Notes: generated from the letters alone by a model not told the origin. DNA of 64,000 nucleotides from Xanthobacteraceae bacterium (GCA_051954235.1 JBQCHY010000056.1:4499-68498); one strand, 5' to 3'; positions 1,811-63,707 are shown, counted from the first letter of the stretch. Made by a program: numbers and translations.

Positions 1811-2464
1811 ACAGACCTGGCATATGAAAGCGACCGATCAGAAGCTCACCAAGGCCATAGCCAATCGACGTCGTCCACATAACCTAGCCGCCCAAAACCT
1901 CGACCTGCATCACCTAATGGCCTCAAAGTTAGAAAGGCCAAGCACTTCGCGAATTGCCAAACGCCACGCAGGACGGGGGCTCATCTGATGTGCACTCTGC
2001 GACCATCGAAACGGGCGATCCTACCTTCACCCAGTATATGATCGCACAAAGTTCACCGATCTTCACTACCTCTCAAGCCCGGCGTTGAATCTAAACTACA
2101 TTCTTGGGAACCCGTCATCTCTAAATTCTCCTACAGTCTAAAAGCTGCACCTTATTTCTGACGAACAATTACAGGAACTATGCCCAGACACACTATCTGG
2201 ATGAACTCCCTTTCTGAGAAACGAAAACGGGGCACCGCTATGCTGCTAGCTGACTTCAAGAGACGCTGTTCTCACTATGCGCTTGATCCTGGCATCCTGG
2301 AAATCACCCCTACAAATTAAGCATAGGCCTACTGCTTCCAGCCTTTATCTCGGGCCGAAGGGTTTGCCGATTGACATTCTCGCGCGAGCATCAACGAGCC
2401 CGCCTAAAACCCACCAATCCATCTCTCGCACAGAGTGCCGAGACGCTGGATGCCGAGGCATGTG

Positions 2465-9384: not shown

Positions 9385-10683
9385 TCACCCTTCGATTCTG
9401 ACGTAAGCACCGTCGGGGGGCGACCGAATGCGATCGCGCGACGTCAAATTTTTAGGGCTACCGTCATTCCCAGTCTGTCGATGATCAATCGAATCGACAC
9501 TCTGAACCCGCCGATTCAAAAGAACCCCCCAACCTAAACCGATCACCGACCAGAAAACCGGGGCGGAAAAAGTAATCAAGAGCAATGAGAATGTGTTCAA
9601 ATAGAGCGCAAAGCGCGCCATGGGTACATCGTGATTAAAGAGCCGAATAATCGACTTACCGAACGCAACTAAGGCCAGTCCGTAGTATAGAACAAACCCG
9701 AAGTATCCATATGTCACCCATGCCGATAGCGCATTGTGAGCATATTCTCCTGCTCCGGTCAGTCGGTCGCCCCCGAATAATCCGGATAGCGGATTTTGGA
9801 CAATTTGCTCCCACGCTATCCCGCTCAGTTCTTGTCGAGCATTCCACGAGGTTGAGTTACCGAGATCGAAGATTTCAAGCTGGCGGGATGCTAAGAGCAT
9901 ATCGAAGCTGAGAAATAGAATCGCCGACGCGCAGCCCCCCAAGAGAACTAAAAACAAAAGATTAGTACTCCTTCTCAGAGAAAGGAGGGCTTCAAGCACG
10001 ACAACGCAGAATATGAAACCAAAAAGCTCAGCGCGGGCAGCTGCAAGAAAGACAATGCAAGCACATGGCAGGATAACAAGAACTCTAAAATATACCGTAC
10101 CGATGAAAGATAGGGCCAGCAAAGCTGTCAATGTTATGGACCTGGAAAATCCTTGATAAGAAGCGGTATTCAAATTGCTAAAATATCGGCTGGGGTCGAA
10201 GCTTAGCCATTGATAATCAGTGAAGTAAGCGGTCAACAGACTCATCAGGGCTAGAAATACCCATATCGCGGCCCTAAACTTACGTGAATTCTCACTCATG
10301 TATGCGCCGATAGACAGAAGCGCAAACAAGGATACGACTAGTACCAAGCTATCGGAAACGGCCGCGATTGCCACATTCGCGGGCTCCGTTTGGGAGCCCA
10401 TCCAAAACGTCCACACAATACAATAGACCAAAAAAATCATTATGAATCCAGCAAACGCCTCGTTCAGCGCCAAGCTGATCCACTTCGACAAGAATACAGT
10501 CGAGAATAGTAGCGAAATAAGTATCGATATCTCGACATTTGACCCGCTATCAACTTCAATTAGTTGAGCAGCTCTGGCCAGATTCCACAAATAAAATCCG
10601 GGGAAAAGCAATATAAATCCGATATTCGCGACTCGGTTTGCCAAAACCCGACTGCTTTCTTTCCACGAGACACTTCGTTTCAT
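9385..10683 (-). CDS. Wzy-like O-antigen/EPS polymerase (polytopic membrane protein)
   Basis: The 432-aa protein has 10 or more hydrophobic segments and a periplasmic-loop motif GAGEYAHNALSAWVTYG (Wzy_C-like). It lies inside the glycan operon. Confidence 0.65.
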   Translation of the reverse strand: MKRSVSWKESSRVLANRVANIGFILLFPGFYLWNLARAAQLIEVDSGSNVEISILISLLFSTVFLSKWISLALNEAFAGFIMIFLVYCIVWTFWMGSQTEPANVAIAAVSDSLVLVVSLFALLSIGAYMSENSRKFRAAIWVFLALMSLLTAYFTDYQWLSFDPSRYFSNLNTASYQGFSRSITLTALLALSFIGTVYFRVLVILPCACIVFLAAARAELFGFIFCVVVLEALLSLRRSTNLLFLVLLGGCASAILFLSFDMLLASRQLEIFDLGNSTSWNARQELSGIAWEQIVQNPLSGLFGGDRLTGAGEYAHNALSAWVTYGYFGFVLYYGLALVAFGKSIIRLFNHDVPMARFALYLNTFSLLLITFSAPVFWSVIGLGWGVLLNRRVQSVDSIDHRQTGNDGSPKNLTSRDRIRSPPDGAYVRIEG

Positions 10684-30979: not shown

Positions 30980-32476
30980 TCAATTTCTTCGTACGAGCCA
31001 TGCCCCGCCCACAAATGACAGGTATAGACACTCCACAACGACGCCACAGACAATTGCATTTGCCAAATGTACAGCAGCCAGCTTCGTAAACAAAGCAACA
31101 CCGAAGACAAGGCCGACGACCAACAACCACCGGCCAACAACTGCTCGCGTTGAAAAGCCGCAAGATCGAAATGCAAAGACTGTCCATGTCAACGAGTACA
31201 CAGTATGCACTAGAGCGAAGGCCAAGGTCGCAGCCAAAACGTTCACTGTGATCATCGCTGTAAATTGTATCGCAACTAGAACGGTGATGGCCGAGACAAC
31301 ACTCAGAATTAGCGCCAGGAACTGCCGACCCACAACATCATAAATTCGATCGTATCCAGCAGCGAGCGCCATCAGAAAGCACGGCAACACTAGAATTTGC
31401 AAGATATATCCTGCACCAAGCCATTCCTCTCCCAAAAGCGTTGAAATAATTTGCGGGCCAATAATCATCAATATTCCGACAGGCCCTGCCATCAACACAC
31501 CGACAATCAAATAACAGCTACTTAAGGGACGCTCCCAATTCTCCAAATTATCGAGGCTGCGAGAAAGACGGGAGAAAATAACCTGCCCGAATGCCGCGGG
31601 AAGAAGCGAAAGGGGTTGAAAGGAAAGCTTGAATGCCATCGAGAATGCCCCGGCAGCATGCGGAGAAATCACAGATCCAAGAATCACTGCAGGAAAATAA
31701 CTATATGCAGCCGACGAAAACGAGTTTGGCATCTGGAATGCAGGAAATCGAAAGTGACGACGCGCAACACGTCTAAGATTGGGCCAATCAAATCCGCTTC
31801 GAAAAACGGATAACAAGATCTGGCGTCGCGAGATTCTGATCCAAACGACAAGCATACCTGCCGCTTGCCCACCAATAAATCCCCAAACCAGACCGACCGC
31901 TCCGACTGCCCAAATACCAAATAGCGCTTGGATTACCAAGGTAACGATCGAGACCGACACTCCGGCGACAGCAACCGCAGAGAATGCCTCGATACGGATG
32001 CACCACTGCGTAGCCAGCATATATTGTCCAGCACAGAACAATGCTGGAGGTAGCAACCAAATAAGAGGCTTCATTGTGGAGCTCAAGCCGGGGTTGCCTC
32101 CAAACAATACAACAACCACTGCAATGCCCGTCAGCAGCATAGAGCCAATTATAATGAGCCATGTTGTTAAGGCTGCGAGCAGTACAATATTATCTTTCTC
32201 AGGATCCACCACCAGAGCGAGTTCGTACCGCATAGTCACAAGCACGGCACATAACATATGCACAGAGAGAAAGATTGAATACAAACCAAAGTCCGTGGGA
32301 CTAAACAGTCGAGCAATTATTATAGTGCCGACAAAATTGAGAAATTGGGCTGCGCCAGAGCCGCTCGTTAAGATAGACGCCATACGCGCGAGAGAGCGCA
32401 AGGAGGTGACGTTCGGCACAGCTGAAGTCACAGCATCCTTTCGTAATTCGTTTCGAAATTTCTCACAGTCCGTCAT
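30980..32476 (-). CDS. Wzx-type oligosaccharide flippase (MOP superfamily)
   Basis: The 498-aa protein has about 12-14 TMs and an N-terminal GSGAAQFLNFVGTIIIARLFSPTDFG polysaccharide-biosynthesis-protein motif. The ATGA overlap with the upstream gene suggests coupling. Confidence 0.8.
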   Translation of the reverse strand: MTDCEKFRNELRKDAVTSAVPNVTSLRSLARMASILTSGSGAAQFLNFVGTIIIARLFSPTDFGLYSIFLSVHMLCAVLVTMRYELALVVDPEKDNIVLLAALTTWLIIIGSMLLTGIAVVVVLFGGNPGLSSTMKPLIWLLPPALFCAGQYMLATQWCIRIEAFSAVAVAGVSVSIVTLVIQALFGIWAVGAVGLVWGFIGGQAAGMLVVWIRISRRQILLSVFRSGFDWPNLRRVARRHFRFPAFQMPNSFSSAAYSYFPAVILGSVISPHAAGAFSMAFKLSFQPLSLLPAAFGQVIFSRLSRSLDNLENWERPLSSCYLIVGVLMAGPVGILMIIGPQIISTLLGEEWLGAGYILQILVLPCFLMALAAGYDRIYDVVGRQFLALILSVVSAITVLVAIQFTAMITVNVLAATLAFALVHTVYSLTWTVFAFRSCGFSTRAVVGRWLLVVGLVFGVALFTKLAAVHLANAIVCGVVVECLYLSFVGGAWLVRRN

Positions 32477-33768
32477 ACGTCAAATGGTTTCCGCATCTTT
32501 TGAAGGATAGTTTTGAAGGAGCGACTAACCCGGTCATCAACATCCTCGGCAAAGTGGCCGCATAATCCGAACGCTGATTGGAAGCCTTCCACTTCGTATC
32601 CGCCTTCCCTTATTTGCGTGGAAGTCGGAACGTAAAGCGGACGACCAACGCCATATCCCGTCGCGATAGAGGAGCTTGGAAGATTTAAAATCGGAACCCA
32701 TTCGCCTAGGAGCTCCCCGGACGAAATGACAATCGATAGATTCCCGGAAAAGTTGAGTGCCGACATATTCAACGAAATTTGTGCACCGCTGTTATCGAAA
32801 AATACAGCGGGACTTCGCATATTTTCGAAAGCCATCATTGAACAAATCGTTGGCGAAGGCATAAGCTCAAGAGCAGCCATTACACTGCTTGAGACGCCTT
32901 CACAGTAATCGCAAAACCCTTTCATTGTCTGGTAAGGTAGTAGCTGATGAAAGGGCAGAGACTTGGCTACAACCTGCTTGAATGTCAACGGGAGGGCCGG
33001 CGCAAAATTAGGTATTGCCGATCCCGCGAAGCCCGGAAGAAAAAGCACAGGCAAATCAGACCCGTATTGTCTTCGCACTTGTAGACGTACTGCTCCGGGA
33101 AAGTCAGGCGATACTGAATCGATCCGTGGATAGAAGGCCGGATGGGCTGCTATTGACCAAATAATTGCTTCGATACCTTTGGTTGAGAAGAACGCCCAGG
33201 CCTTAAGCATATTATCGGCAAATCCGTTTGGGTTCCGTGCTTGCGCGACTCTTTTGCCGAACTTCGGAAGACGCCCCCTTTTCAAATCCGAGTACGTCAG
33301 TACCCAGCTGGGGCGGCGCCTATTTACCGCATAACCTCCGTAGACCGCGGTCGCGGCGAGTTTCAGTTCCATAAACTGACTGCCCAACTTCGCCTTGATA
33401 GCACCTGATATGCGTTCAATGCAGCTTTCATAATATGCTTCATCGACTGCACCCAAGCTGGGGGTGGATCGAGCTAATGCCGGTGCATTATGAGTATGGC
33501 TGGCAACGAGCAGCAAGCAAGCCGGACTTATTCCAATGGCTTGAGCGAGTGCGGCGTGAAATTCGGCCTCAATAAACAAAGTATCAAGCGTAACAAGAAC
33601 TACAAAAGCGGGGCCTGAGGCGATAAGCAGCACGTTCGCCTCAAGTTTTCCATCTATTCTGCGAAACACGCCCGATCTCGCGCTATAGCCTGCCAAAGGA
33701 ACCGGCTGGCTCGGAGTGATATCAATGGTAACAAACTCGAACAAAGGTGAATCAAGATGCTCTGGCAT
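32473..33768 (-). CDS. Neutral/alkaline-ceramidase-like amidohydrolase domain protein (function unknown)
   Basis: The N-terminal pattern is IDITPSQPVPLAGYSARSG...LEANVLLI...VVLVTLDTLFI...LLVASHTHNAPAL. It mirrors the bacterial ceramidase-N-domain pattern (DITPP.G.PLAGY...ALVL....V..DL......SATHTHSGP). No signal peptide is evident. Confidence 0.45.
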   Translation of the reverse strand: MPEHLDSPLFEFVTIDITPSQPVPLAGYSARSGVFRRIDGKLEANVLLIASGPAFVVLVTLDTLFIEAEFHAALAQAIGISPACLLLVASHTHNAPALARSTPSLGAVDEAYYESCIERISGAIKAKLGSQFMELKLAATAVYGGYAVNRRRPSWVLTYSDLKRGRLPKFGKRVAQARNPNGFADNMLKAWAFFSTKGIEAIIWSIAAHPAFYPRIDSVSPDFPGAVRLQVRRQYGSDLPVLFLPGFAGSAIPNFAPALPLTFKQVVAKSLPFHQLLPYQTMKGFCDYCEGVSSSVMAALELMPSPTICSMMAFENMRSPAVFFDNSGAQISLNMSALNFSGNLSIVISSGELLGEWVPILNLPSSSIATGYGVGRPLYVPTSTQIREGGYEVEGFQSAFGLCGHFAEDVDDRVSRSFKTILQKMRKPFDV

Positions 33769-45264: not shown

Positions 45265-45386
45265 CGGAACTACGCGTTGAGCAGATTTCATGATCTGAGT
45301 TCATCGTTATCAACGAACTCAGGTGTAAAGCTCATCGTCCCATTGAGATAAACGAATATCGTTCAACGCGTGGCGTCATAGTTATC

Positions 45387-45413
45387 CCCACGCCGGCGGC
45401 TGGCCGGCGTGGG
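45387..45413. terminator. GC-rich hairpin between convergent genes (CCCACGCCGGC-GGCTG-GCCGGCGTGGG)
   Basis: An 11-bp perfect stem was read from the sequence. No adjacent T/A run is present, so terminator function is uncertain. Confidence 0.3.
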
Positions 45414-45433
45414 AAGCTGGGCACTCAGATGCG

Positions 45434-46762
45434 TTAGCTGCGATAGGCGCTGGCCAGCAGCGACTCGTTCAGCCAACTCGAGGCATGAGGCGCGGTCGTA
45501 GCGATCTGACCGGAATCGGCACGCCCTTGATATCCGCCCGCAAGAGACTGACTCAGGAGGGCGAAGCTCTGGCTATGGTTATGGCCTCCGTATGGCGAAG
45601 ACCAGCCACCCGAGGCCGGAGGATCCGTCACAGTGATGGTCTGCGTTCCCGAAGTCGCAGTAGCACCGCTCACGGGATCCCGTCCGGTCGCGCTTACCGA
45701 GAGCGTCGCGGTCGGGCTGCCCGAGCCGCGATAGGCTGAGTTCAGCACCAGCCCACCCTCGACTTGCGCGGCGGTAAAGGTGATGTTCTTGCCCGAGAAC
45801 GTCTGGCCATCGAGATTAGACGTGATTGACTCGTAACTCGGCAACCCGCGAATATTGACGCTGACGATATCATTTTTGTCGGTCGTCGAAACACCGAGCC
45901 CGAGGTCGACATGGCCACCAGGCTGAACCGAGAGCGTGTTGTCCGCCACGTAGACAGACGGTTTCGTCGCGACCGAGGTCGCCGGCGGCGTCGTGACCTC
46001 AGGCGGTGTGACTGGCGTGGTCGTGACTGGAGGAGTGGTTACCACCGGCGCAGTTGGATCCTCCGTCACGGACGTCAGGCCGGGCGGCGGATCGGCCTGC
46101 AAGCTCGCGGGACTCATCGAACTGAAATAAAGGGTTTTGTAGTCGGTCGTCAATTTCACCCAATCGCTCATTCCGGGCGACGGATTGTTGGCGAATCCAT
46201 CGACGTAGGGAGCGGTGGAGCTGCGCCACCAATCGGCGCCGATATTGGCCACGAGGTTAGCGTTCGGATCGTTGGTCTTCATCTGCGCTTCGACGAAAAC
46301 ACCATCGATGGTCCCGGCCCCGTACGTCCCGCGCGCGCCCGGCCAGAAATGGTCGTTATATCCGCTTCTCGGCGCATCCATCGTCATGCTGCCGTCCGCC
46401 AGCGTCGCCTCGTTCCACGCGACGTTGGCGACACCGGAAAAATCGGCGGTGTAATGCGCGCCGTCGATCGGGTTTGTCGACTGATCCTGCACCAAAACCC
46501 AACCACCATTCGTGAGATGCACGTAGGTTTTGAAGTTGGCTACCTGAACATTGGCACTTGTATTGGTCGTAGCTGCCGCGCCGGCCTCTGGATAAACCTG
46601 TCCCCAACCGGTGACAGACGTGAAATCGGACGGAGGCTTGTCTCCCACGATGGTATTGGTTCCGCTGTACCAATCGTAGCCTTGCGGAACGCCTAACGGG
46701 AAACCCTCGCTATTACCAATGGTGTTTTGATAGATTGCATCAGTCAACGGGCTTGTTGCCAT
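45434..46762 (-). CDS. Unknown-fold protein, paralog 1: N-terminal domain shared with 49810-50727, a Thr/Pro linker and an adhesin-type Ig-like module; no N-terminal signal peptide
   Basis: The start at MATSPL has an AAGGAG RBS. A TTPPVTTTPVTPPEVTTPP linker lies at 45965-46090. The C-terminal VSVNIRGLPSYESI...ITFTAAQVEGGLVL...ATLSVSATG resembles repeat modules of alphaproteobacterial secreted adhesins. Confidence 0.65.
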   Translation of the reverse strand: MATSPLTDAIYQNTIGNSEGFPLGVPQGYDWYSGTNTIVGDKPPSDFTSVTGWGQVYPEAGAAATTNTSANVQVANFKTYVHLTNGGWVLVQDQSTNPIDGAHYTADFSGVANVAWNEATLADGSMTMDAPRSGYNDHFWPGARGTYGAGTIDGVFVEAQMKTNDPNANLVANIGADWWRSSTAPYVDGFANNPSPGMSDWVKLTTDYKTLYFSSMSPASLQADPPPGLTSVTEDPTAPVVTTPPVTTTPVTPPEVTTPPATSVATKPSVYVADNTLSVQPGGHVDLGLGVSTTDKNDIVSVNIRGLPSYESITSNLDGQTFSGKNITFTAAQVEGGLVLNSAYRGSGSPTATLSVSATGRDPVSGATATSGTQTITVTDPPASGGWSSPYGGHNHSQSFALLSQSLAGGYQGRADSGQIATTAPHASSWLNESLLASAYRS

Positions 46763-47068
46763 CCATACTGCTCCTTTGCAGGTCAAAGTTGAAGATGCGA
46801 AATTCCACATGCAAGTCGAAGATGTGAGATCCCGCCTCCACGCGAATGCGTACATCGCGTTGCTTACTCACAACCCCCGTTGTGAGCAGGCTTCAAGCAG
46901 TGGGTTTGGAATGAGAATCACCGCCCCCCAACTGCCATCATGGCTTGGTATTTAGGGAGTGTGGCGAAAAAATCTTCAAAGTGGGATTTATCTACGTGTA
47001 AGTAACAGCCGGGCGCGAAGTAATAGCGCCTTCTTACATTGCGGTGCTTCTCGACGATCTAAAACTCG

Positions 47069-48322
47069 CTAGGATCGCGTGTTTGTTTGACTTCCACCGC
47101 CCGCGGACAATTTCCAGTTGTCTGTTAACAACTCAGAAGAGTGCTGCACCGCGACATGCTTCGTCCACATGTGTTTGATCCACATGCGGACAGCGTCGGT
47201 ATGCCGCTCGAAGAGAAAGTAGAATGCAACCGCAAGTAACAAGCACGGCACGGTGAATGTCAGGTCGAGCCCGATCGATCCAATGGTGAAATCATGCGGA
47301 TTGTCGCTCATGACATTGAGAAACACGAGCATCGGATAATGTATCGCGTAGAGCGAGAAACTCCACTTCGCCGTCTCTTTTCCGAAACGCAAAAATGACG
47401 GTAGTTCGACGTTCCTAAATTCCATCCCGACGATTGCGGCTGCGGTGACCAAGCCGATGATGAGATCCTTCGCGGCCCATGGCGCGAGTAATCCCGCATG
47501 GGCAACGATGGCGGTGCCCACCACGCCGGCGACAAAGAGCACCGACCACAGCAGAATCGGCACTGAAATGGCGTAAATAACAGTCCCGAGCGACCATATC
47601 AGAAAATAGAAAAAGAACTTCAGTCCCGTATGATATCCAAGCTTATCGGAGTGCTCCGCGAAGGCGAACAGGAAGAAAATCACCACGATCAGAAGACCCC
47701 ACAAGGACGATCTGCGAACCGACAGGAATGCGAAGATCAGCAGGTAGTACCAGAACTCGTTGGACAAGCTCCACAAAGCCATATTGCCCGCAAACATCGA
47801 GCAACTGATTGTCTGCAGGAATAGCATATTGCACGAGGCGGTCGCGGGGCCGTAGCTGGCTGTAAAGATCATGAAGCCTTGCTCGAGGTGCCGGTGAGCG
47901 TTCACGAACACCTGCCATCCACTCGCATACCGGGCAGAGACGAAGAAAAGCAAGGACAGCACCAGCGCGGGTATCAGCACCACATACAACCGTGCTGCGC
48001 GCGCAGACAAATAGTCGACGCCGTTGAGTCTTCCCATACTGGCGCGAACCAGCGCTGGCCCGCCCACCAGATAGCCGCTGAGGACAAAGAACACGATGAC
48101 GGCGGACGGCCCTTGCGCGCTGAGGCTCCACAAAACAGAGTACGCATACACGATCGCCGAACCGTAGCTTTCGGCGGGAAGTTGCTCCTGGAAAAGCAAT
48201 TGATACGAATGGAAGAGCACGACCTCAATGGCAGCCAGCCCGCGCACCAGATCCAGCCAATCGGAAAGGGCAGAAGACACTCCCGTCTTTGACCGGAGAT
48301 GGATCATGTCTCTTCTCGCCAT
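47069..48322 (-). CDS. Acyltransferase-3 family membrane O-acyltransferase (ExoZ/OafA/NodX-like, no SGNH domain)
   Basis: It has WLDLVRGLAAIEVVLFH (catalytic His region) and about 10 TMs. The start may be the second Met at 48307, which has a purine-rich RBS. Confidence 0.8.
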   Translation of the reverse strand: MARRDMIHLRSKTGVSSALSDWLDLVRGLAAIEVVLFHSYQLLFQEQLPAESYGSAIVYAYSVLWSLSAQGPSAVIVFFVLSGYLVGGPALVRASMGRLNGVDYLSARAARLYVVLIPALVLSLLFFVSARYASGWQVFVNAHRHLEQGFMIFTASYGPATASCNMLFLQTISCSMFAGNMALWSLSNEFWYYLLIFAFLSVRRSSLWGLLIVVIFFLFAFAEHSDKLGYHTGLKFFFYFLIWSLGTVIYAISVPILLWSVLFVAGVVGTAIVAHAGLLAPWAAKDLIIGLVTAAAIVGMEFRNVELPSFLRFGKETAKWSFSLYAIHYPMLVFLNVMSDNPHDFTIGSIGLDLTFTVPCLLLAVAFYFLFERHTDAVRMWIKHMWTKHVAVQHSSELLTDNWKLSAGGGSQTNTRS

Positions 48323-48405
48323 CGAACTCGACAGGCCTGCGCGTCAAACGCGCAAATCGCCATTCCAGAATGGCCCTAAATAGATACGTGCCAGATACTT
48401 GGAAG

Positions 48406-48419
48406 TTGACGACCATCAA
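48406..48419. promoter_or_regulatory. FNR/FixK-type box TTGACGACCATCAA
   Basis: It matches TTGAT-N4-ATCAA at 9/10 positions and TTGA-N6-TCAA perfectly. It lies in the divergent region 84-99 bp upstream of the acyltransferase start. A TATTTA -10-like hexamer on the minus strand (48377-48382) sits at class-II spacing. Confidence 0.45.
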
Positions 48420-48689
48420 AACGGCGGTCGGTTTTTATCTTCTAGATATTGCAATGAAAGCGAGTGTCCTGGCCGTTCTGCGTGCTCGCCAACTCCAGAC
48501 AACAACGTTCGCGCGTCGAGATGCCAGCGATAACGATGCAAATGGTCACGGTTCGTCATCCGGCGAGAGCGTGGAAGTCTTTCGGTTACAGCGAGGCACC
48601 CCGAAGTCAAAGGACTGAACAGCAATAGTTTCCATTCTGCAAATCACGCGAGCGATTTCCATCAAAGCAAATTTCGAGGCTAGTCGCAG

Positions 48690-49763
48690 ATGACCTTTCA
48701 TGCTGGAGATATGGTTCAAATTCGCAGCAAGCAGGAAATCCTTGCCACGCTCGACAAGAGCGGCCGCCTGGAAGGGCTTCCGTTCATGCCGCAGATGTTC
48801 AAGTACTGCGGCAAGTCGTTCAAGATTTTCAAGGTCGCGCACAAGACCTGTGACACCGTCAACGGCACGGGCGGACGTCGGCTTCCCGGCGGTATCCATC
48901 TCGATCTTCGCTGCGACGGCCAGGCCTACGGCGGTTGCCAGGCCGCGTGTCTGATCTTCTGGAAGGAGGCGTGGCTGAAGCCGGTCTCCGACGCCTCCAT
49001 TGCGGCCGAGCCAGTGCCGGTGCCGCAATCTCCGACAGTCACGCCGATGAACGGCTGTTTGGAAAGCGACGTGTTGCGCGCGACCTCGGTAACAAGCGAT
49101 GGCGAGGAAGCGTATCAGTGCCAAGCCGTGCGCCTGCCCTACTTCACGCGCCTGCTTCCCTGGTGGCGACCGGACCAGTACATCGCCGATTATCTCTCCG
49201 GCAACGTGAACCTTCGCAAGATCTTCAAGGGTCTGATCTACACCGTGTACACCAAGGGAACCAGAGCCTACCATCCGTTCCTCGGGCGACCCGGCCGCTG
49301 GTTCTACAATTGGGTTCAAGCACGGCGCGGCGGCACGCCCTACCCCCGGCAGCGCGGCCGACTTCCGGCGGGCGAAGCCGCCCCTATCGTCGAGCTCAAC
49401 TTGCAACCCGGCGAGCTTGTTCGCACAAAATCCTATGAAGAGATTCTCACGACGGTGAATTTCCAGAACATGAATCGAGGCCTCTTTTTCGATGGAGAGA
49501 TGGTCCCCTATTGCGGCGGCACCTACCGCGTCAAAGCGCGCGTCTCGAAGTTCATCGATGAGAAAACCGGAAAAATGAGATACATGAAGACACCCGGCGT
49601 AATTCTCGAAGACGTCTGGTGCGGGTCATGCTTCAGCACCCGGCGAATGTTTTGCCCACGCGCAATCTATTCGTGGTGGCGTGAGGCCTGGCTGGAACGC
49701 GTTGAAGAAGCACCAGAGATGCTTCACACTCCCACCGTGGCGAAGAGCAACGCGAACGCATGA
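48690..49763 (+). CDS. Cys-rich protein with an internal tandem duplication, function unknown
   Basis: Residues 3-98 and 238-337 align: GD.V.I.S..EIL.TL......GL.F...M..YCG....V........ then a Cys cluster and FWKEAWLKPV / WWREAWLERV. I recognise no family. Confidence 0.65.
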   Translation: MTFHAGDMVQIRSKQEILATLDKSGRLEGLPFMPQMFKYCGKSFKIFKVAHKTCDTVNGTGGRRLPGGIHLDLRCDGQAYGGCQAACLIFWKEAWLKPVSDASIAAEPVPVPQSPTVTPMNGCLESDVLRATSVTSDGEEAYQCQAVRLPYFTRLLPWWRPDQYIADYLSGNVNLRKIFKGLIYTVYTKGTRAYHPFLGRPGRWFYNWVQARRGGTPYPRQRGRLPAGEAAPIVELNLQPGELVRTKSYEEILTTVNFQNMNRGLFFDGEMVPYCGGTYRVKARVSKFIDEKTGKMRYMKTPGVILEDVWCGSCFSTRRMFCPRAIYSWWREAWLERVEEAPEMLHTPTVAKSNANA

Positions 49764-49809
49764 CGCACGTCCGTCAATCAATCCGAAGCCGCATCGGTAA
49801 CGCCGGCCT

Positions 49810-50727
49810 TTATGGCCGGGCGAAGCAAGGCGCCGGCCCGTTTGCGTGGTGGCGAACGATGGCTGAAGCGGCCTTATGCATAGGGCCTGCAAGCTGTGGC
49901 GGCGGGGACGTCTGAAAGTCCGCGGCGCTCCCGGAATAAAAGCGCAAGGTCGACCACTCCGTCGAGAGCTCGATCCAGTTGCTCATGCCGGCCCCCGGAT
50001 TGTTGGCGAAGCCGCTCACGTAGACCGCAGTTGGGTTTCGCCACCAGTCGGCGCCGACATTGGCAACGAGCTTTTTATTCGGGGTATCGGTCTTCATGTC
50101 CATCTGAACGTAGACGCCATCGATGCTTCCAGCCTCGTATGCTCCTCGCCTCGTCAGCCAGAAGTGCGTATTGAAGCCGGCAGTGGGCCCTGGAAGAACC
50201 GCGGTGCCGTTCGGCAGTTCCCGCACCGTGATCTGCCTGGTTTCCCTTGCACCGAAGTCGGCAGCATAGTGCCCGCCGGCAACGTCGTCGGTAGTCTGAT
50301 CCTGCACCAACAGCCATTCATGGGTGGCGCGACGGCGAACGTAGGTCTTTGCATTGGCAACCATGATGTTTGCGTCCGGATTTGGCTCTTGTGGCGAGCC
50401 GACCTCCGGATAGACCTGCGCCCATCCTGTCACCGCCGAGAAATCGGAAGGCGGCGCTCCGTTTCCCGGCGGCGCGTACGAACCACCGCACCACGCAAAA
50501 TGCCCGGGCACTCCGACGGCATAACCCTCGCTTTCACCGCGCGTGTTCTGGTCGATTGCGTCGAGGACCGGCGAGGTTATCGTCTTGTCGACGGACGACG
50601 CCGTCGCTTGGCTTGCCGATGCCGACCAATCTGGCACAGCATGGACGAGCAAAGCCGCGACGATCGCCACTGCCGGCGCAGCGGATTTAGCGGCGAAGAG
50701 CCGTAAAGGGCGGTAGCACTGATGCAT
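49810..50727 (-). CDS. Unknown-fold secreted protein, paralog 2 (signal peptide plus the shared domain only)
   Basis: The start is taken at MHQCYRPLRLFAAKSAAPAVAIVAALLVHA...SASA (Sec-type signal). The mature part aligns with 45434-46762 along about 220 aa (DAI.QNT.G.SEG, PPSDF..VTGW.QVYPE, W.LVQDQ, GADWWR, GFANNP..GMS.W). Confidence 0.65.
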   Translation of the reverse strand: MHQCYRPLRLFAAKSAAPAVAIVAALLVHAVPDWSASASQATASSVDKTITSPVLDAIDQNTRGESEGYAVGVPGHFAWCGGSYAPPGNGAPPSDFSAVTGWAQVYPEVGSPQEPNPDANIMVANAKTYVRRRATHEWLLVQDQTTDDVAGGHYAADFGARETRQITVRELPNGTAVLPGPTAGFNTHFWLTRRGAYEAGSIDGVYVQMDMKTDTPNKKLVANVGADWWRNPTAVYVSGFANNPGAGMSNWIELSTEWSTLRFYSGSAADFQTSPPPQLAGPMHKAASAIVRHHANGPAPCFARP

Positions 50728-50808: not shown

Positions 50809-52290
50809 TTACTCCGCTGCCTGGATTTCCCTGAGATGATTGCGCACCGATCGCTTGACCACTTCCTCGAGCGCAGTTTCGACTTCGACTTCGTCCTCCT
50901 GCCGGCGTGCTCGCATGAATTCCAGCAACACCGCAAATCCCGAACCCAACGCGATGCCGCCCAGCACGACAATCAGGATCAAGTGCGGCGTTCGAGGAAA
51001 CATCGGCAAAGCCGGACGCTCCGCGCGTTGCACCACCCGAACGCTCGAGAGCTGTGTCTTCTTGGCGATGTCCTGATTGATCTGCTCCTCGATCACCCGA
51101 CTGCCATAATGATCGGCGGCGGTCGACGCCCGAGTGAGTACGCGCTTCAGCCTGTCATACTCGGCCTGCTTCGAGGACAAGGATCCTAACTCATCATTCA
51201 CCTTGCCGATCTCACCTACCAATGCCTTCTCGACGTTGAGGGCGCCATTGAGCTCCGTGTTGACCTTGAGCAGGCCCGCCATGGCATCCTGGTATACCTT
51301 GATCAGCAATAGCGGCGGCGCATCATCGCTAGGGACCGTCCCGACCGAACTGCTGCCTGCTTTGTAATCGCGCCCGCGGAGATCGCTCACGATCGCGGTG
51401 ACGGTCCGCGATTGGTGGACGGGTCGCAGGGTCACGAGTTGATCGAGGATAGCCTGCTTCTGACCTTTCCAGTCTTCAATGGAACTGCGCGTTGTGGACA
51501 GCTTCGCATCGAGCGCATCGACGCGCTGCAGGAGCAATTTCCGCTGATCGTCGACAGAATAAATTCCGGCCTCGACCGAAAAATTCCGAAGATCCGTGCC
51601 CGCCTTCTCGGCCTCCTGCTCCAGGCGCTTGGTCTGCTGCTGATAGAAAACCTCGGCGCCCGGAATTTGGACGAGGTCGGCCTGCATAGCGATCAGTGCG
51701 TTCGCGAGTTTGTTCAGAAATTCTGCCGCGACAGCCCGATCCGGATGGCGGAATGACACCCGCAGAATATCGGTGCGTCCCTCGCCCCTCGCTGAAATCA
51801 GCTCGCGCAGCTTAGCAATCAGCTTCTGGTGATCGTCCTTCGTTTCGTCTGCGCTGCCGCCAGCGCTGTTCGCCTCAGCGCGAGGTTTGAGAAAATCGAA
51901 CTGCGGAGGCAGTGCCTGAAGGCTCGATGTCAGCCACGACCCCGCCACGAACATGGGGCTCGATTTGTCCTTCTTGAACAAACGGCCGTAGCCGATCTCC
52001 GAAGCCGCCAGACCGATGACCTGATCGGTCGTTGCGATTCGCGCCAGCGACTCGATGCGGCTTGTCAGATCAGGGCCTTCGCCGAGGATACTCCCTGCCG
52101 ACCGATCCTTGATGCCCTGCCCAACCCGCAACAACGTATACGACTCGTAGCGGTCGCCGACGGCGCTGTGGAAGAGAAATCCTGCAGCCGATGCGAGGAT
52201 GAGAGCAACATATATCACCCGCCGCCGTCGCCAGAGGATCGGCAATATTTCGTTGAGCCGCGGAGTGTGATTGTTCGCACCGTGTTGCAC
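50809..52290 (-). CDS. GumC/ExoP-N-type polysaccharide co-polymerase (PCP-2 without kinase domain)
   Basis: It has a Wzz-type N-terminus (TM plus YESYTLLRV), a long coiled coil, and a C-terminal TM followed by only about 35 aa with no Walker motif. The ORF opens with a GTG at 52320. The internal GTG at 52288-52290 has a GGAG RBS 8 nt upstream. Confidence 0.75.
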   Translation of the reverse strand: MQHGANNHTPRLNEILPILWRRRRVIYVALILASAAGFLFHSAVGDRYESYTLLRVGQGIKDRSAGSILGEGPDLTSRIESLARIATTDQVIGLAASEIGYGRLFKKDKSSPMFVAGSWLTSSLQALPPQFDFLKPRAEANSAGGSADETKDDHQKLIAKLRELISARGEGRTDILRVSFRHPDRAVAAEFLNKLANALIAMQADLVQIPGAEVFYQQQTKRLEQEAEKAGTDLRNFSVEAGIYSVDDQRKLLLQRVDALDAKLSTTRSSIEDWKGQKQAILDQLVTLRPVHQSRTVTAIVSDLRGRDYKAGSSSVGTVPSDDAPPLLLIKVYQDAMAGLLKVNTELNGALNVEKALVGEIGKVNDELGSLSSKQAEYDRLKRVLTRASTAADHYGSRVIEEQINQDIAKKTQLSSVRVVQRAERPALPMFPRTPHLILIVVLGGIALGSGFAVLLEFMRARRQEDEVEVETALEEVVKRSVRNHLREIQAAE

Positions 52291-52367
52291 AGCCAATGCT
52301 CCAGATTGGAAACAAACCACGCGTCGGGTTGTACGAGCGAATGATGCGCCCTGATGGCCTGCCCAAG

Positions 52368-53329: not shown

Positions 53330-54796
53330 ATGTCTCTCGTCCATGACACCAACCTCATAACCGGCCTGGTTCATTCGAATTCCCGCAGCCAGCCTGTTGC
53401 CCCGATCTCGCTCAACGTCATGTCGCCGCTGATTGCGATATTCGATCTCGTCTGGATCGTCGCACTGGGAATTACCGTAGGTCTTCTCTATGACCACCTG
53501 GCTCTTGGTGGGCACAGCACGGCGCAAAATCACCTCGGCGCGGGAATCGCCGTGGCCGCGCTCTACTTAGGGTTCGCTCATGCGGCCGAGCTTTATCGCG
53601 GACCGAACCTCCTCCAGGTCAAATGGCAAGTCGAACATGCCACGCTTGCCTGGCTGCTGGCGTTCGTGTGCCTTGCATCCATTGCGTTCTTACTGAAAAC
53701 GGGAGCGGCATTCTCGCGCGGCGAGATGCTGCTATTCTTTAGCAGCGGCATCATTGCCAGTGCGGCAATGCGATTGATCGTTGCGCGGGTTTGCCGCTTC
53801 GTTCTCGCGTCCGGCGCGTTGAAATCCACCCGGGTCGTGTTGGTCGGATTGGCGGACGAACTCGCCGCCAATGGCGCATTGTCCGCGCTGGAAAAATACG
53901 GTTATGCCGTAGTCAGCGTCTTCCCGTTACCCACAGACGAAAATCCGGCCTCCGCCCGCGACACGCTGAAAGCCTATTTGCGGCAGGTGACCCGTTACGT
54001 CAGGGACATGAATATCGACGAGATCATCGTCGCGATTCCCTGGCGTTCGACGGAACTCCTACGCGAGGTCGAAGACGAGTTACGCGTGCTGCCGATACAG
54101 GTCACGCTGGTGCCTGACACCATTGCAGGTCAGGTATTGGATCACCCGTTGGCTGAACTCGGTCCGACAAAGGCAGTGCAACTCCAGCGGCCACCCCTGA
54201 ATGCCTTCCAGCGCAATCTGAAGCAAGGCATCGACCGCATACTGGCCGCGACGTCCCTGTTCCTTTTGATACCCTTCCTGGCCGTGATCATCGCGGCGAT
54301 ACGGATGGAATCGCCGGGGCCGGCGCTCTTTCTCCAAACGAGGGTCGGCTTCAATGGACGGCCATTCAAAATTTTCAAGTTCAGAACGATGTCCACGCTT
54401 GATGACGGGCCGGTCATCGTTCAAGCTACCAAGAACGACAGCCGCATCACACACCTCGGCGCACTGTTGCGCAAGCTTAGCATCGACGAACTGCCGCAAC
54501 TGATCAACGTGCTACGCGGCGACATGTCGCTGGTCGGCCCGCGTCCGCACGCGCTTGCACACGACAACGAATACGATCGGCTGATCGCGACCTACGCCAT
54601 ACGGCACAAGATGAAACCCGGCATCACCGGTTGGGCCCAGATCAACGGATTCCGTGGCGAAACACCTGAAATCGGCATGATGATGCGCCGGGTGGAGAGC
54701 GACCTGTGGTACATCGAGTCATGGTCGCCATGGCTCGACATCCGCATCATGCTGCTCACCGTGGTCCGGGTCCTGCAATCGGAAAACGCCCGTTGA
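53330..54796 (+). CDS. Polyprenyl-phosphate hexose-1-phosphate transferase (WbaP/ExoY family, full-length polytopic form)
   Basis: The 488-aa protein has N-terminal TMs, a central Rossmann-like domain and a C-terminal PALFLQTRVGFNGRPFKIFKFRTM...GDMSLVGPRP. Confidence 0.9.
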   Translation: MSLVHDTNLITGLVHSNSRSQPVAPISLNVMSPLIAIFDLVWIVALGITVGLLYDHLALGGHSTAQNHLGAGIAVAALYLGFAHAAELYRGPNLLQVKWQVEHATLAWLLAFVCLASIAFLLKTGAAFSRGEMLLFFSSGIIASAAMRLIVARVCRFVLASGALKSTRVVLVGLADELAANGALSALEKYGYAVVSVFPLPTDENPASARDTLKAYLRQVTRYVRDMNIDEIIVAIPWRSTELLREVEDELRVLPIQVTLVPDTIAGQVLDHPLAELGPTKAVQLQRPPLNAFQRNLKQGIDRILAATSLFLLIPFLAVIIAAIRMESPGPALFLQTRVGFNGRPFKIFKFRTMSTLDDGPVIVQATKNDSRITHLGALLRKLSIDELPQLINVLRGDMSLVGPRPHALAHDNEYDRLIATYAIRHKMKPGITGWAQINGFRGETPEIGMMMRRVESDLWYIESWSPWLDIRIMLLTVVRVLQSENAR

Positions 54797-60719: not shown

Positions 60720-62036
60720 GTGTCGAACAGGAAGCACCATGCCGACGCGGGCGAGGTTCCTCCAATTGACCTGCATGGGTTGGTGCAGGAGCTTTTCCCG
60801 ATCAATCGAAGCCTCACCGGCGCCGGCGTTCGCGAGACACTAGCGATCCTGGCGCGATACGTCGCGCTGAACATCAGGGAGATTCCGAGCGGTACAGCGG
60901 TGCTCGATTGGCACGTTCCACTGGAATGGAACATTCGCGGCGCAACCATCAAGACACTGGACGGCCGACGCATGGTCGATTTCGCGGACAACAATCTGCA
61001 TGTCGTCGGCTACAGCAAGCCGTTTCATGGCGAGGTGAGCCACGCGGAACTAGCGCGGCATGTCCACACCCTGCCCGATCAGCCCGACCTCATTCCCTAT
61101 CGCACCGGCTACTATGCCGACGACTGGGGGTTCTGCATGGCCGACAATCTCTGGCAAACCATGCAAGACGAAAGCTATGTCGTTGATATCGACAGCGACC
61201 TTTCGCCGGGGGCGCTCGCCTATGGGGAGTTTTGTCACCCAGGCGAAACATCCGATGAGATACTGATCACGGCCCACATCTGCCATCCGAGTCTTGCGAA
61301 TGACAACCTTTCCGGAATCGCCGTAGCCCTTGCATTGGCTATGCGGCAAACGCAGCTCAAGACACGATTGGGTTTACGCGTTCTGTTTCTGCCTGCGACG
61401 ATCGGCGCGATCTCGTGGCTCGCCCGCAACGAGGATCATCTCGGCAAAATTCGCCATGGATTGGTTCTGACCTGCATCGGCGATAACGGAGGCTTCCACT
61501 ACAAACAAAGCCGAAGCGGCGCACCCATCGACCATGCCGTCGCGCACGTACTGCGCCATTCCGGCCATCCGCACGAGATCATGGCCTTCGATCCCTACGG
61601 CTACGACGAAAGACAATTCTGTTCGCCGGCGTTTGACTTGCCGGTGGGCTGCCTGATGCGCAGCGTTCACGGGACTTTCCCCGAATACCACACGTCGGCG
61701 GACAATCTCGATTTCGTGAAACCCGAAGCACTCGATCAATCCTATGCGGTAACGGCAAGCTTGCTCGACCTGCTGGACGCGAACCGCACCTACATCCGGA
61801 TCGATGGAAGGGGCGAACCCCAACTGGGGCGACGTGGTCTGTATCGCGCGATCGCCGGGCAGAAGGAAGCTGGCGGCGCTAGTCAGATGGACCTGTTGTG
61901 GGTCCTGAACCTGGCTGACGGCAAGCATAGCCTGCTGAAGATGGCGGATCGCGCCGGCGTCCCCTTTTTCCGCATCCAAAAGGCCGCGCGGCTCGCGCTG
62001 GATGCCGACCTTATCAAAGAGATCGCTGGCAATTGA
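60720..62036 (+). CDS. Aminopeptidase-like (M28-fold, DUF4910/COG4310-type) protein with a C-terminal winged-helix region
   Basis: It has ELFPINRSLTGAGVRETL and HICHPSLANDNLSGIAV motifs, which I associate with the polysaccharide-locus aminopeptidase-like family. It uses a GTG start. Confidence 0.7.
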   Translation: MSNRKHHADAGEVPPIDLHGLVQELFPINRSLTGAGVRETLAILARYVALNIREIPSGTAVLDWHVPLEWNIRGATIKTLDGRRMVDFADNNLHVVGYSKPFHGEVSHAELARHVHTLPDQPDLIPYRTGYYADDWGFCMADNLWQTMQDESYVVDIDSDLSPGALAYGEFCHPGETSDEILITAHICHPSLANDNLSGIAVALALAMRQTQLKTRLGLRVLFLPATIGAISWLARNEDHLGKIRHGLVLTCIGDNGGFHYKQSRSGAPIDHAVAHVLRHSGHPHEIMAFDPYGYDERQFCSPAFDLPVGCLMRSVHGTFPEYHTSADNLDFVKPEALDQSYAVTASLLDLLDANRTYIRIDGRGEPQLGRRGLYRAIAGQKEAGGASQMDLLWVLNLADGKHSLLKMADRAGVPFFRIQKAARLALDADLIKEIAGN

Positions 62037-62090: not shown

Positions 62091-63380
62091 CTATCGCCTG
62101 CCTCTCGTGATATGCGTGCTCGCACTGCGAACGGGCTGAAACACAGCCGCATGCGGCACCGCTTTGGGAACGTTGTCGCGCGCGGTCTGCACGCCTCTTT
62201 GGAGCGTGTAGGCTAGAAACAGAAACACCGCTGCCTCGCTGGCGAGAACGCCAAACGCGGCCACATTCGGGCGCATGGTGGCATACGCGGCAGCGACGAC
62301 CAGCAGATTTCCGAACGCGGCAATTGAAGCCAGTTTCAGCGCAAACCCATCGTGATGGCGATGGTGCAGATAGGCATTTCCCAATGCAAAATTAGTCGCC
62401 AACAGCGGAAAGCCGAGCAGCATCCATCGCAGCGGCTCCGCCGCGCCGACATAGTTGGCCGAGAATACCAGCGTCAGAAAGAAGGGCGCGGTGATCGCGA
62501 AGAAGAGCGAGACAACCGACGAAGCGGCAAAACAGATGGCTCCCAACACGTACCAGCGCACGTGTTGGAAATGGCCGGCCGTTGCCAACCGGACCAGTTC
62601 TTGAGACAGAAACGCAAACGATCCAACGCCAGCATAGAACAACTTGTCGGCTTGCAGATAGAGGCCGACATGCGCCTGCGTGAACAGCACAACGACAAAA
62701 AGTCCGTTGGACCAATGCGAACCCAGCATGATCAATCTGATACTCAATGAGTCGAGCGACTCGCGAAAAATATCCCTATCGAGGTGAAATAGGGTTTTCA
62801 ACGACACGTAACGGAACAGGCGCTCGCTGACGAGAAGGACCGACCCCAGCCGTGATGCAACGAGAATACTCAGAATCACTACGAGCGTCGGCTGATACTT
62901 GAGAAAAATGATCGCAATGTAGATCGCAACCGCAAGCGACGAAAAGATTATCTCCGATATCGAGTACAGACGAAAGATGCTGGTGTTGGCCGCGACCAAC
63001 CACGGAGATCGCAATGAAAAGCCGACGATCAGAAGTATCCCGAGGATTGCCGGCAACGGCTGCCCGGAGGTCGGCATATACACGTATGCAACCGGAAGAC
63101 AAAGCAGCATGATCAGAAAGCGTTGAGCATTGACTTTGTAGTAATAGGCCGCCTGATCCGCAGCTTTCGGTCTTTGAGCCAGATTGCGATAAGCCGGTCG
63201 CGAGTACCCGAGATCCGCCACCTGCGAAGCGAACATGCACACGGCGTGAATGCTGAGCAGAAGCACATTCTGACTATGATTGAGCGTTAGAGCCGCGGCC
63301 TTGAAGGCGACGAACAGCGACGCTGTGTTGGCGACGTAGAGCGCAAGCATTAAGAACAACCGGCTTGAAATGCTTGGCAT
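62091..63380 (-). CDS. Polytopic membrane protein, Wzx/MOP-flippase-like
   Basis: It has about 12 TMs, is convergent with the CDP-sugar operon, and starts at MPSISS with a GAAGGAAG RBS. The family assignment rests on topology and context only. Confidence 0.6.
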   Translation of the reverse strand: MPSISSRLFLMLALYVANTASLFVAFKAAALTLNHSQNVLLLSIHAVCMFASQVADLGYSRPAYRNLAQRPKAADQAAYYYKVNAQRFLIMLLCLPVAYVYMPTSGQPLPAILGILLIVGFSLRSPWLVAANTSIFRLYSISEIIFSSLAVAIYIAIIFLKYQPTLVVILSILVASRLGSVLLVSERLFRYVSLKTLFHLDRDIFRESLDSLSIRLIMLGSHWSNGLFVVVLFTQAHVGLYLQADKLFYAGVGSFAFLSQELVRLATAGHFQHVRWYVLGAICFAASSVVSLFFAITAPFFLTLVFSANYVGAAEPLRWMLLGFPLLATNFALGNAYLHHRHHDGFALKLASIAAFGNLLVVAAAYATMRPNVAAFGVLASEAAVFLFLAYTLQRGVQTARDNVPKAVPHAAVFQPVRSASTHITRGRR

Positions 63381-63707
63381 CTTCAAACTTCCTTCGCCGA
63401 TATCTGCCGTCAAGTTAGCGCGCGGCGCGCCTAACATGCAGCCTTACCGTTTTGCATAGGGACGCCTGCCAGGCCCGTCATCGAACGCCGGTTTTGCGCC
63501 TCGGTGGCGAAAGCAAATGACATCGCGTGGAACATCTGCTGATTGGGGCGATTGTGGACGATTTCGCCCATGCTGATCTCATGAGCGAGCTAACGCTTGG
63601 ATTGAATGCCGGAACGGCGTCTGCCACGGTTCAGGGCTCGAAAATCTCGAGCCCGTTCGACCTCTAACCTGCTCGCCGTCCCGGCTACGCCAAACTTGCG
63701 GCCAGTT

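Follow-up and report, generated by a model that had tools for sequence, protein, structure and literature searches.

Low-molecular-weight exopolysaccharide (EPS) acts as a signal in rhizobial symbiosis and biofilms, and the enzymes that produce it are, to our knowledge, known only for Sinorhizobium (ExoK/ExsH) and Rhizobium (Ply). ExoK and ExsH of Sinorhizobium meliloti are succinoglycan glycanases of the GH16 family, the second of which is exported by a type I secretion system (T1SS), PrsDE (PMC1403797, PMC3233446), and RapA2 and RapD, lectins that leave the cell by PrsDE, bind EPS and affect the length of the polymer although they are not glycanases (PMC9298526). Here we describe two genes of a surface-polysaccharide locus in a stretch of DNA from a soil-dwelling Xanthobacteraceae bacterium (GCA_051954235.1, JBQCHY010000056.1:4499-68498; the whole 64,000 nucleotides (nt) are referred to as the window, with positions counted from the first letter), termed paralogue 1 and paralogue 2 after a domain that they share. 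They are absent from curated families, follow two export designs, and are linked to polysaccharide loci and, in relatives, to T1SS genes. The domain represents an uncharacterised family in a dual-route layout of the ExoK/ExsH kind, in other words a new domain in a known arrangement, because the layout resembles both ExoK/ExsH and plyA-prsDE, yet the tests for GH16, PL7, RTX and Ra/CHDL all fail.

As in the Sinorhizobium pair, two apparently secreted paralogues stand at an EPS locus, one short and with a Sec leader (paralogue 2), the other longer, leaderless and, in orthologues, linked to a T1SS (paralogue 1). ExoK is about 270 amino acids (aa) long and ExsH about 465 aa, against 305 aa for paralogue 2 and 442 aa for paralogue 1. 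Unlike ExoK and ExsH, the present domain is unmatched by the GH16 family of Pfam, lacks the ExDxxE motif and bears no significant structural likeness; paralogue 1 is without RTX repeats, and enzymatic activity is putative here. A second comparison is offered by the glycanases PlyA/PlyB and prsDE in the Pss-I region of Rhizobium leguminosarum, where a T1SS pair and a polysaccharide-acting substrate are encoded inside an EPS cluster (PMC8227245, PMC3233446); the likeness lies in the gene order of Bradyrhizobium and of one related metagenome-assembled genome (MAG; locus L010), in which a leaderless paralogue is followed by an ATP-binding cassette (ABC) transporter and a membrane fusion protein (MFP). 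The Ply domains are, however, unrelated (no family match), the ABC transporter here carries two tandem inactive C39-like domains, and in the window no T1SS is adjacent. A model for a binding role is provided by the Rap proteins (RapA2, RapD; Ra/CHDL lectins), acidic T1SS substrates of small size that have no leader and attach to the EPS or capsular polysaccharide (CPS) of the producing cell (PMC9298526). The cadherin-like Ra domain is unmatched by Pfam here, however, and the domain described here has about double the size and occurs in a Sec-exported form as well.

A domain shared by two proteins

The two proteins and their parts are listed below, with the evidence for each in brackets.

45434..46762, minus strand: paralogue 1, 442 aa, consisting of domain, Thr/Pro linker, Ig-like module and C-terminal tail (open reading frame (ORF), ribosome-binding site (RBS))
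46070..46762, minus strand: shared domain, residues 1-231 of paralogue 1 (BLASTP against paralogue 2; AlphaFold2 (AF2) predicted local distance difference test (pLDDT) mostly >90)
45980..46069, minus strand: Thr/Pro-rich linker, residues 232-261 (sequence; AF2 pLDDT <50)
45608..45979, minus strand: Ig-like beta-sandwich, residues 262-385 (AF2 pLDDT ~90, 12 strands)
45437..45607, minus strand: disordered C-terminal tail, residues 386-442 (AF2 pLDDT ~30)
49810..50727, minus strand: paralogue 2, 305 aa, consisting of leader, domain and, at the C-terminus, a short Cys-containing strand (ORF)
50614..50727, minus strand: predicted Sec signal peptide, residues 1 to about 30-38 (hydropathy, homologues; AF2 pLDDT <50)
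49888..50580, minus strand: shared domain, residues 50-280 of paralogue 2 (BLASTP, homologue alignment, AF2)
49813..49887, minus strand: C-terminal extension, residues 281-305, with Cys301 (AF2 strand at residues 290-293)

Both products are identical to NCBI proteins of a Xanthobacteraceae MAG that are named 'hypothetical' (ACTHNN_10490 for paralogue 1 and ACTHNN_10505 for paralogue 2). BLASTP aligns residues 3-229 of paralogue 1 with residues 51-279 of paralogue 2 at 117/229 identities (51%, E 3e-76), a similarity far above chance. A first-pass annotation of this DNA had seen by eye a common domain of about 220 aa with roughly half the positions identical; the alignment bears this out at a size of about 230 aa, and all of the sequence blocks then quoted (DAI.QNT.G.SEG, PPSDF..VTGW.QVYPE, W.LVQDQ, HFW, IDGV.V, GADWWR and GFANNP..GMS.W) are found.

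The same annotation could not place the domain in any family and saw no signature of GH16 or PL7, and on both counts it agrees with the searches made here. Scans of both paralogues with Pfam (E<=1), NCBIfam and PHROG gave zero matches, the PDB searched by sequence and by profile with the domain gave no relative, and Pfam at E<=10 over 99 diverse family members gave no consistent family on the domain itself, only partner domains. For GH16, Glyco_hydro_16 (PF00722) is unmatched in both paralogues (E<=1) and in the 99 members (E<=10), and a regular-expression search for the catalytic motif ExDxxE / ExDxE is negative in both paralogues. For PL7, PF08787 is unmatched and the R(S/T/N)E(L/V)R, Q(I/V)H and YFKAG motifs are absent by the same kind of search; fold comparison is likewise negative for both families.

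The family is large. In a word-indexed search at 90% identity, the one paralogue drew 268 clusters and the other 254, and a profile search of a 50%-identity library gave 767 representatives at E<=1e-3, 131 of them at E<=1e-30. Names given by the sources are all 'hypothetical', save three that describe partner domains ('Ca2+-binding RTX toxin-like', 'phage tail P2-like' and 'carbohydrate-binding domain-containing'), and the literature searched gave no description of the domain family, no Bradyrhizobium EPS glycanase gene, and no gene credited with producing low-molecular-weight EPS in Bradyrhizobium or its relatives.

AF2 models of paralogue 2 (core pLDDT ~90) and of paralogue 1 (N-terminal domain mostly >90) predict an all-beta domain of roughly 11 strands, among which several span 10-13 residues. 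Foldseek was run against the PDB with these two independent models, of paralogue 2 and of full-length paralogue 1. With the first, nothing fell below E 1e-3 and all template-modelling scores (TM) were <0.25 except for 1ajo (TM 0.22-0.28); with the second, the matches were generic two-domain Ig-like adhesins and antibodies at TM <0.25, with no GH16 protein among the best 50 matches listed. Neither search gave a convincing solved-structure match for the domain. Against predicted viral structures (BFVD) the result was three metagenomic phage proteins at E 2e-11 to 1e-6 and TMq 0.39-0.57, namely A0A8S5NCN9 ('SH3 domain protein'), A0A8S5TWL1 ('Tail protein') and A0A8S5T3V6. Here there is structural likeness to the domain, but the domain forms part of virion proteins of 750-1200 aa, and these give no function because they are themselves uncharacterised.

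Two export designs

Paralogue 2 has the features of a Sec substrate, as the first-pass annotation had stated. Its leader comprises an n-region with R6, R9 and K14, a hydrophobic stretch at residues 15-30 (Kyte-Doolittle 12-mer 2.1-2.7) and candidate cleavage sites of the AxA type at VHA30 and ASA38, with no lipobox, and is kept in homologues; the call is made from hydropathy, alignment with homologues and the Cys pattern. The columns of Cys80 and Cys301 covary across the family, both being present in 108 domains, neither in 61 and one only in 6, and a Cys80-Cys301 disulfide is therefore probably formed, which in turn would mean folding outside the cytoplasm. The gene lies directly downstream of that of a polysaccharide co-polymerase (PCP), on the same strand and after a gap of 82 nt, again as annotated. 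A terminator-like hairpin 3' of paralogue 2 (49773-49753) is weak evidence, because the scan gave fewer such sites in the sequence than in shuffled sequence. Sorting by PEP-CTERM or as a lipoprotein was considered for paralogue 2 and dropped, since no such motifs were found.

Paralogue 1 starts from an ATG at 46762 preceded by AAAGGAG with an 8-nt spacer. The strong RBS without a signal peptide that had been read from the sequence is confirmed, as there is no hydrophobic segment in the first 60 residues (maximum 12-mer Kyte-Doolittle hydropathy 0.33); the domain begins at residue 2, so there is no N-terminal leader, and orthologues start alike. The protein has 0 Cys and an isoelectric point (pI) of 4.44. 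The Thr/Pro linker of the first-pass annotation is seen at residues 232-261, but its adhesin-type Ig-like module stands in part only: the fold is supported by the predicted beta-sandwich and by Foldseek matches to Ig, fn3 and PapD-like domains (TMt 0.3-0.5, e.g. 9kvu at TMt 0.53), whereas the Pfam Big_* families give no match to paralogue 1. The module recurs among orthologues. A search with the C-terminal module alone returned only fragments or orthologues of the same family, and for this reason it is not demonstrable as portable onto other enzymes. The tail bears the conserved motif SQSFALLSQSLAGG.QGRADSGQIA...SSWLNESLL, and paralogue 1 has no RTX nonapeptide repeats (GGxGxD).

These characters belong to a class. 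Eighty-six members with long C-terminal extensions start M-[AS]-T-S-x-L-[TS]-D-A-I-x-Q-N-T at residue 1-3, and nearly all of them end in ..SFALL[NS]Q[YS]LAG..G[RQ].D.GQI...W...[LF]L[ST][RK]PQH or the variant ..AM.L[VM]TQ[YF]SA... The leaderless class is largely Cys-free (74/107) and acidic (median pI 4.6). In three leaderless members (P0175, P0214 and P0243) the tail is replaced by a C-terminus of the RTX/serralysin type, ..LGLTASDF[HF/LL/FL], with four or more GGxGxD repeats in P0175 and P0214. The tail motif itself, about 45 aa long, is conserved in >60 leaderless members and makes paralogue 1's tail a candidate non-RTX type I secretion signal, a function suggested by synteny; the disordered segment of the window (45437-45607, minus strand), together with the C-termini of those >60 members, would then be a candidate for a new class of T1SS signal.

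The synteny in question is as follows. In Bradyrhizobium diazoefficiens (L001) and other Bradyrhizobium (L004/L005), the leaderless orthologue, which has the tail of paralogue 1, is followed immediately by an ABC transporter and an HlyD/AprE-type MFP, and these leaderless genes sit inside Wzx/Wzy-type polysaccharide clusters. The MAG locus L010 has the gene order of the window (NTP-transferase, PGT, Crp, PCP, paralogue 2, a gene of unknown function, acyltransferase, paralogue 1) with an ABC/MFP pair (L010:11357-15772) directly after paralogue 1. The ABC transporters are unusually long at 882-944 aa (L001:12041-14689, L004:11950-14685 and L010:11527-14361; 882-911 aa in L001 and L004/L005) and contain a tandem pair of C39-like domains. 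Where the catalytic Cys would stand, the first domain has Leu and the second Ser, for which reason the transporters are taken to be HlyB-like and not leader-cleaving peptidases. In the window and in the closest relatives, L011 and L012, the position of the L010 ABC/MFP pair is held by HbpS-like, enoyl-CoA hydratase and LysR genes, and at this position (45265-45433 in the window) the HbpS-like gene abuts paralogue 1. The L010 orthologue of paralogue 2 is itself called as two overlapping ORFs (L010:5722-6829; 214 and 171 aa), either a frameshifted pseudogene or an assembly error.

Pairs of the two designs recur. In Pseudorhodoplanes (L003) and in MAG L008 a leaderless copy with Big and DUF642 modules comes immediately after one of the Sec type, in both cases within polysaccharide clusters, and Bradyrhizobium sp. 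JYMT (L007) has two Sec-type copies with GT4 genes, a T1SS and a DUF4910 gene as in the window. A polysaccharide-cluster context is seen in the window, L001, L003, L004, L007, L008, L010 and L011. Outside such clusters lie L006, with an RTX-type member, L014, with a CBM60 fusion from Myxococcota, and L009, with a copy on a Nostoc plasmid. That the two paralogues are designed for separate export routes is well supported. The first-pass proposal of non-Sec, type I secretion for paralogue 1 is backed independently by the orthologues that adjoin ABC/MFP genes, the RTX C-termini of homologues, the acidic and Cys-poor class and the recurring Sec/leaderless pairing, but T1SS genes are not at the expected place in the window or in L011/L012, and for that reason secretion of paralogue 1 in this organism is something that we infer only. 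A double-glycine leader at its N-terminus was considered and rejected, given that in Sec-type members this segment comes after the signal peptide; it is moreover a helix of the folded domain, and the C39-like domains of the ABC transporters are without the catalytic Cys.

Proposed cutting or binding of the cell's own polysaccharide

Most likely the domain acts on the cell's own polysaccharide, either cutting or binding it. In the scheme that we propose, the two genes encode paralogues of an all-beta domain of ~230 aa that would be extracellular and directed at the organism's own surface polysaccharide. Paralogue 2 would share a transcript with the co-polymerase gene, leave the cytoplasm by Sec, owe its stability to its disulfide, and work in the periplasm or at the cell surface. 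Paralogue 1 would be exported unfolded by a T1SS via its disordered, conserved C-terminal tail and would work outside the cell, the Thr/Pro linker and Ig-like spacer holding its domain away from the tail. Within this scheme, secretion in this organism, the nature of the substrate and catalysis are inferences.

The likeliest mechanism, to which we give a little less than an even chance, is a catalytic domain that cleaves polysaccharide and sizes the chains as ExoK/ExsH do for succinoglycan. A putative active-site cleft would be formed by the family-invariant Trp138 and Trp229 with Asp227, Arg194, His188, Gln142, Asn243 and Tyr106 (paralogue 2 numbering), in what may be a lyase-like arrangement of Arg/Gln/Asn with His/Tyr. 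Conservation across the family is 100% for D227 and W138, 95% for R194, 92-96% for W229, ~89% for H188 and N243 and 84-91% for Q142, and the conserved polar set persists among 37 non-redundant members of <36% identity from very different sources. The size of ~230 aa, the strands of 10-13 residues, the polar invariant set and the slot right after the PCP gene favour an enzyme, as does the occurrence of CBM60 or malectin N-terminal to the domain in secreted proteins of ~400 aa, the usual layout of a carbohydrate-binding module (CBM) with a catalytic partner. Both paralogues are under purifying selection, which we count for catalysis; the ratio of non-synonymous to synonymous substitution rates (dN/dS) is 0.13 for paralogue 1 against its L011 orthologue (0.17 for the C-terminal part including the tail) and 0.20 for paralogue 2. 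The gene slot also fits those of cluster-encoded trimming enzymes, such as plyA/prsDE in Pss-I of R. leguminosarum and exoK and exsH/prsDE of S. meliloti (PMC8227245, PMC1403797, PMC3233446). Of the EPS-depolymerase duo on a different fold that the first-pass annotation had suggested, the dual-route layout and the polysaccharide-locus context have stood, and enzyme activity is argued for by circumstantial evidence only.

A number of findings weigh against catalysis, and several of them speak for a non-catalytic glycan-binding module of the lectin or CBM kind, a realistic possibility that we hold somewhat less likely than the enzyme. Under it, paralogue 2 would be a periplasmic or surface polysaccharide binder and paralogue 1 a T1SS-secreted matrix or adhesin protein on the cell's own EPS/CPS, the polymer being organised, retained or indirectly affected in length, and phages would use the module for receptor binding. 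The domain has a single invariant carboxylate, so that a classical two-carboxylate glycosidase mechanism is unlikely and a lyase or non-classical hydrolase would be more alike. The model has no significant match to any glycanase or lyase of the PDB (GH16 1ajo: E 0.06, probability 0.33, TM 0.22/0.28; PL7 1vav: E 0.18, TM ~0.1), and the weak resemblances in the PDB are to adhesins (CfaE, CupB6, MSCRAMMs, RbmA), although at TM <0.25 these are not meaningful. The only significant Foldseek matches are to metagenomic phage tail proteins (E 2e-11 and 2e-10; TMq 0.47-0.57), and a phage baseplate protein of the Tail_P2_I type has three tandem copies with a conserved core, an architecture commoner among binding modules. 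The domain is often found at the extreme C-terminus of long phage-like proteins, in P0302 it is C-terminal to a region matching the PHROG 'lipase' (putative esterase), and many members pair it only with Ig-like, DUF642, fn3, collagen or SH3_3 modules; its conserved core is also rich in Trp. Yet binding sites normally drift with their ligand, whereas one and the same set of Asp, Arg, His, Gln and Asn is found in Xanthobacteraceae, Myxococcota, Nostoc and phages alike; fusion to CBM60 or malectin is more usual for catalytic partners; at 230 aa the domain is big for a lectin; and a monovalent 26-kDa lectin co-transcribed with the PCP gene has no obvious role.

The secretion genes raise a different difficulty for a working pair. 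No T1SS gene lies in the 64-kb window, and none stands beside the paralogue 1 orthologue in L011/L012, where, as in the window, HbpS-like, enoyl-CoA hydratase and LysR genes take the place of the ABC/MFP pair that syntenic L010 keeps. Paralogue 1 could accordingly be decaying or orphaned in this organism, its dedicated T1SS lost from the locus and the duo non-functional here, but we regard this as very improbable: the dN/dS values are low over the whole gene and in its tail-containing part, the ORF is intact, the tail motif is kept in close relatives that are also without an adjacent T1SS, and T1SS genes are often unlinked from their substrates, the window covering only 64 kb of a contig that measures at least 247 kb. 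Improbable too is that the proteins are accessory to polysaccharide export, assembly or cell attachment and are neither depolymerases nor free lectins, a role exemplified by PssO, a poorly understood secreted protein beside pssP/pssN in R. leguminosarum. It would agree with the position of paralogue 2 directly after the PCP gene, with a neighbourhood that always holds another conserved uncharacterised protein (357 aa), and with the negative search for Poly_export/Wza (outer-membrane polysaccharide export) genes, which covered the window as well as 10-kb flanks at related loci. It fits poorly, however, with the occurrence of the domain in phage tail proteins, in CBM fusions and copies away from polysaccharide clusters (L014, L006, L009) and in RTX-type secreted proteins, and with paralogue 1 being a soluble, acidic protein of the T1SS-substrate type.

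Returning to the enzyme, its fullest version is that the domain founds a new carbohydrate-active enzyme family, in all probability a lyase-type or non-classical depolymerase with a fold absent from the PDB, that a Sec and T1SS pair in Bradyrhizobiaceae/Xanthobacteraceae sizes the cell's own EPS, that phages borrowed the domain for their baseplates, and that a dedicated tandem-C39-like T1SS reads a new non-RTX signal (..SFALLNQYLAG..GRVD.GQI..); taken together this seems to us rather unlikely. The family, present in many Bradyrhizobium EPS loci with a dedicated T1SS and all 'hypothetical', is a concrete and testable candidate for EPS sizing. Should it prove catalytic, CAZy would gain a family with a new fold; should it prove a lectin, it would add an EPS-binding module of matrix or adhesin proteins, new and common to phage baseplates. 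Either way there are three leads, in the conserved non-RTX tail, the tandem-C39-like T1SS ABC transporter and the recurring 357-aa neighbour.

The Tail_P2_I protein with three copies has 1170 aa (L013:10001-13513), each copy ending in DPPPPL, and is encoded on a myovirus-type contig with a contractile-tail structural module that includes capsid, PAAR, Baseplate_J, sheath and tube genes. A tblastn search of an annotated phage collection gave no match to the domain, and one of plasmids gave a single match of 22% identity on the Nostoc plasmid of L009, in an uninformative context. Identity with the B. japonicum lectin BJ38 was considered and dropped, as BJ38 has been linked to TadG (PMC8429497) and its pI of 6.4-6.8 and 38 kDa do not fit.

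Neighbouring genes and a second polysaccharide locus

Four further genes of the same locus surround or separate the two paralogues.

50809..52320, minus strand: polysaccharide co-polymerase (Wzz and GNVR), immediately upstream of paralogue 2 (Pfam)
47069..48322, minus strand: Acyltransferase_3 membrane protein, between the paralogues (PF01757, E 1.6e-18)
48690..49763, plus strand: conserved protein of 357 aa, internally duplicated (unmatched in Pfam and NCBIfam)
53330..54796, plus strand: initiating sugar transferase (CoA_binding_3 and Bac_transf) of the same polysaccharide locus (Pfam)

The position of the acyltransferase is conserved in L010, L011 and L012. The 357-aa protein is a constant member of the neighbourhood, with a gene for 356-358 aa at the same position in these three loci; in B. 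diazoefficiens the gene just downstream of the T1SS (L001:16897-17835) encodes a homologue at 35% identity (E 1e-58). The 357-aa protein carries conserved Cys.

Positions 1-35000 of the window hold a second polysaccharide locus, with a GC content of 0.49-0.55 against ~0.60 at 36-64 kb, which was possibly acquired horizontally. It comprises GT4 genes, two asparagine-synthase-like genes, Wzz, Polysacc_synt_2 and two UDP-glucose dehydrogenases, together with a DegT aminotransferase, a GlcNAc 2-epimerase, Wzy_C, a Wzx-type flippase and a formyltransferase. Four long ORFs of 431-507 aa in the polysaccharide loci have no Pfam match (2435-3958, plus strand; 9385-10683, 32473-33768 and 62091-63437, minus strand). 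Finally, a DUF4910/DUF2172/HTH_47 (M28-like) gene is found near family members both in the window (60720-62036, plus strand) and in Bradyrhizobium sp. JYMT (L007:1-859).

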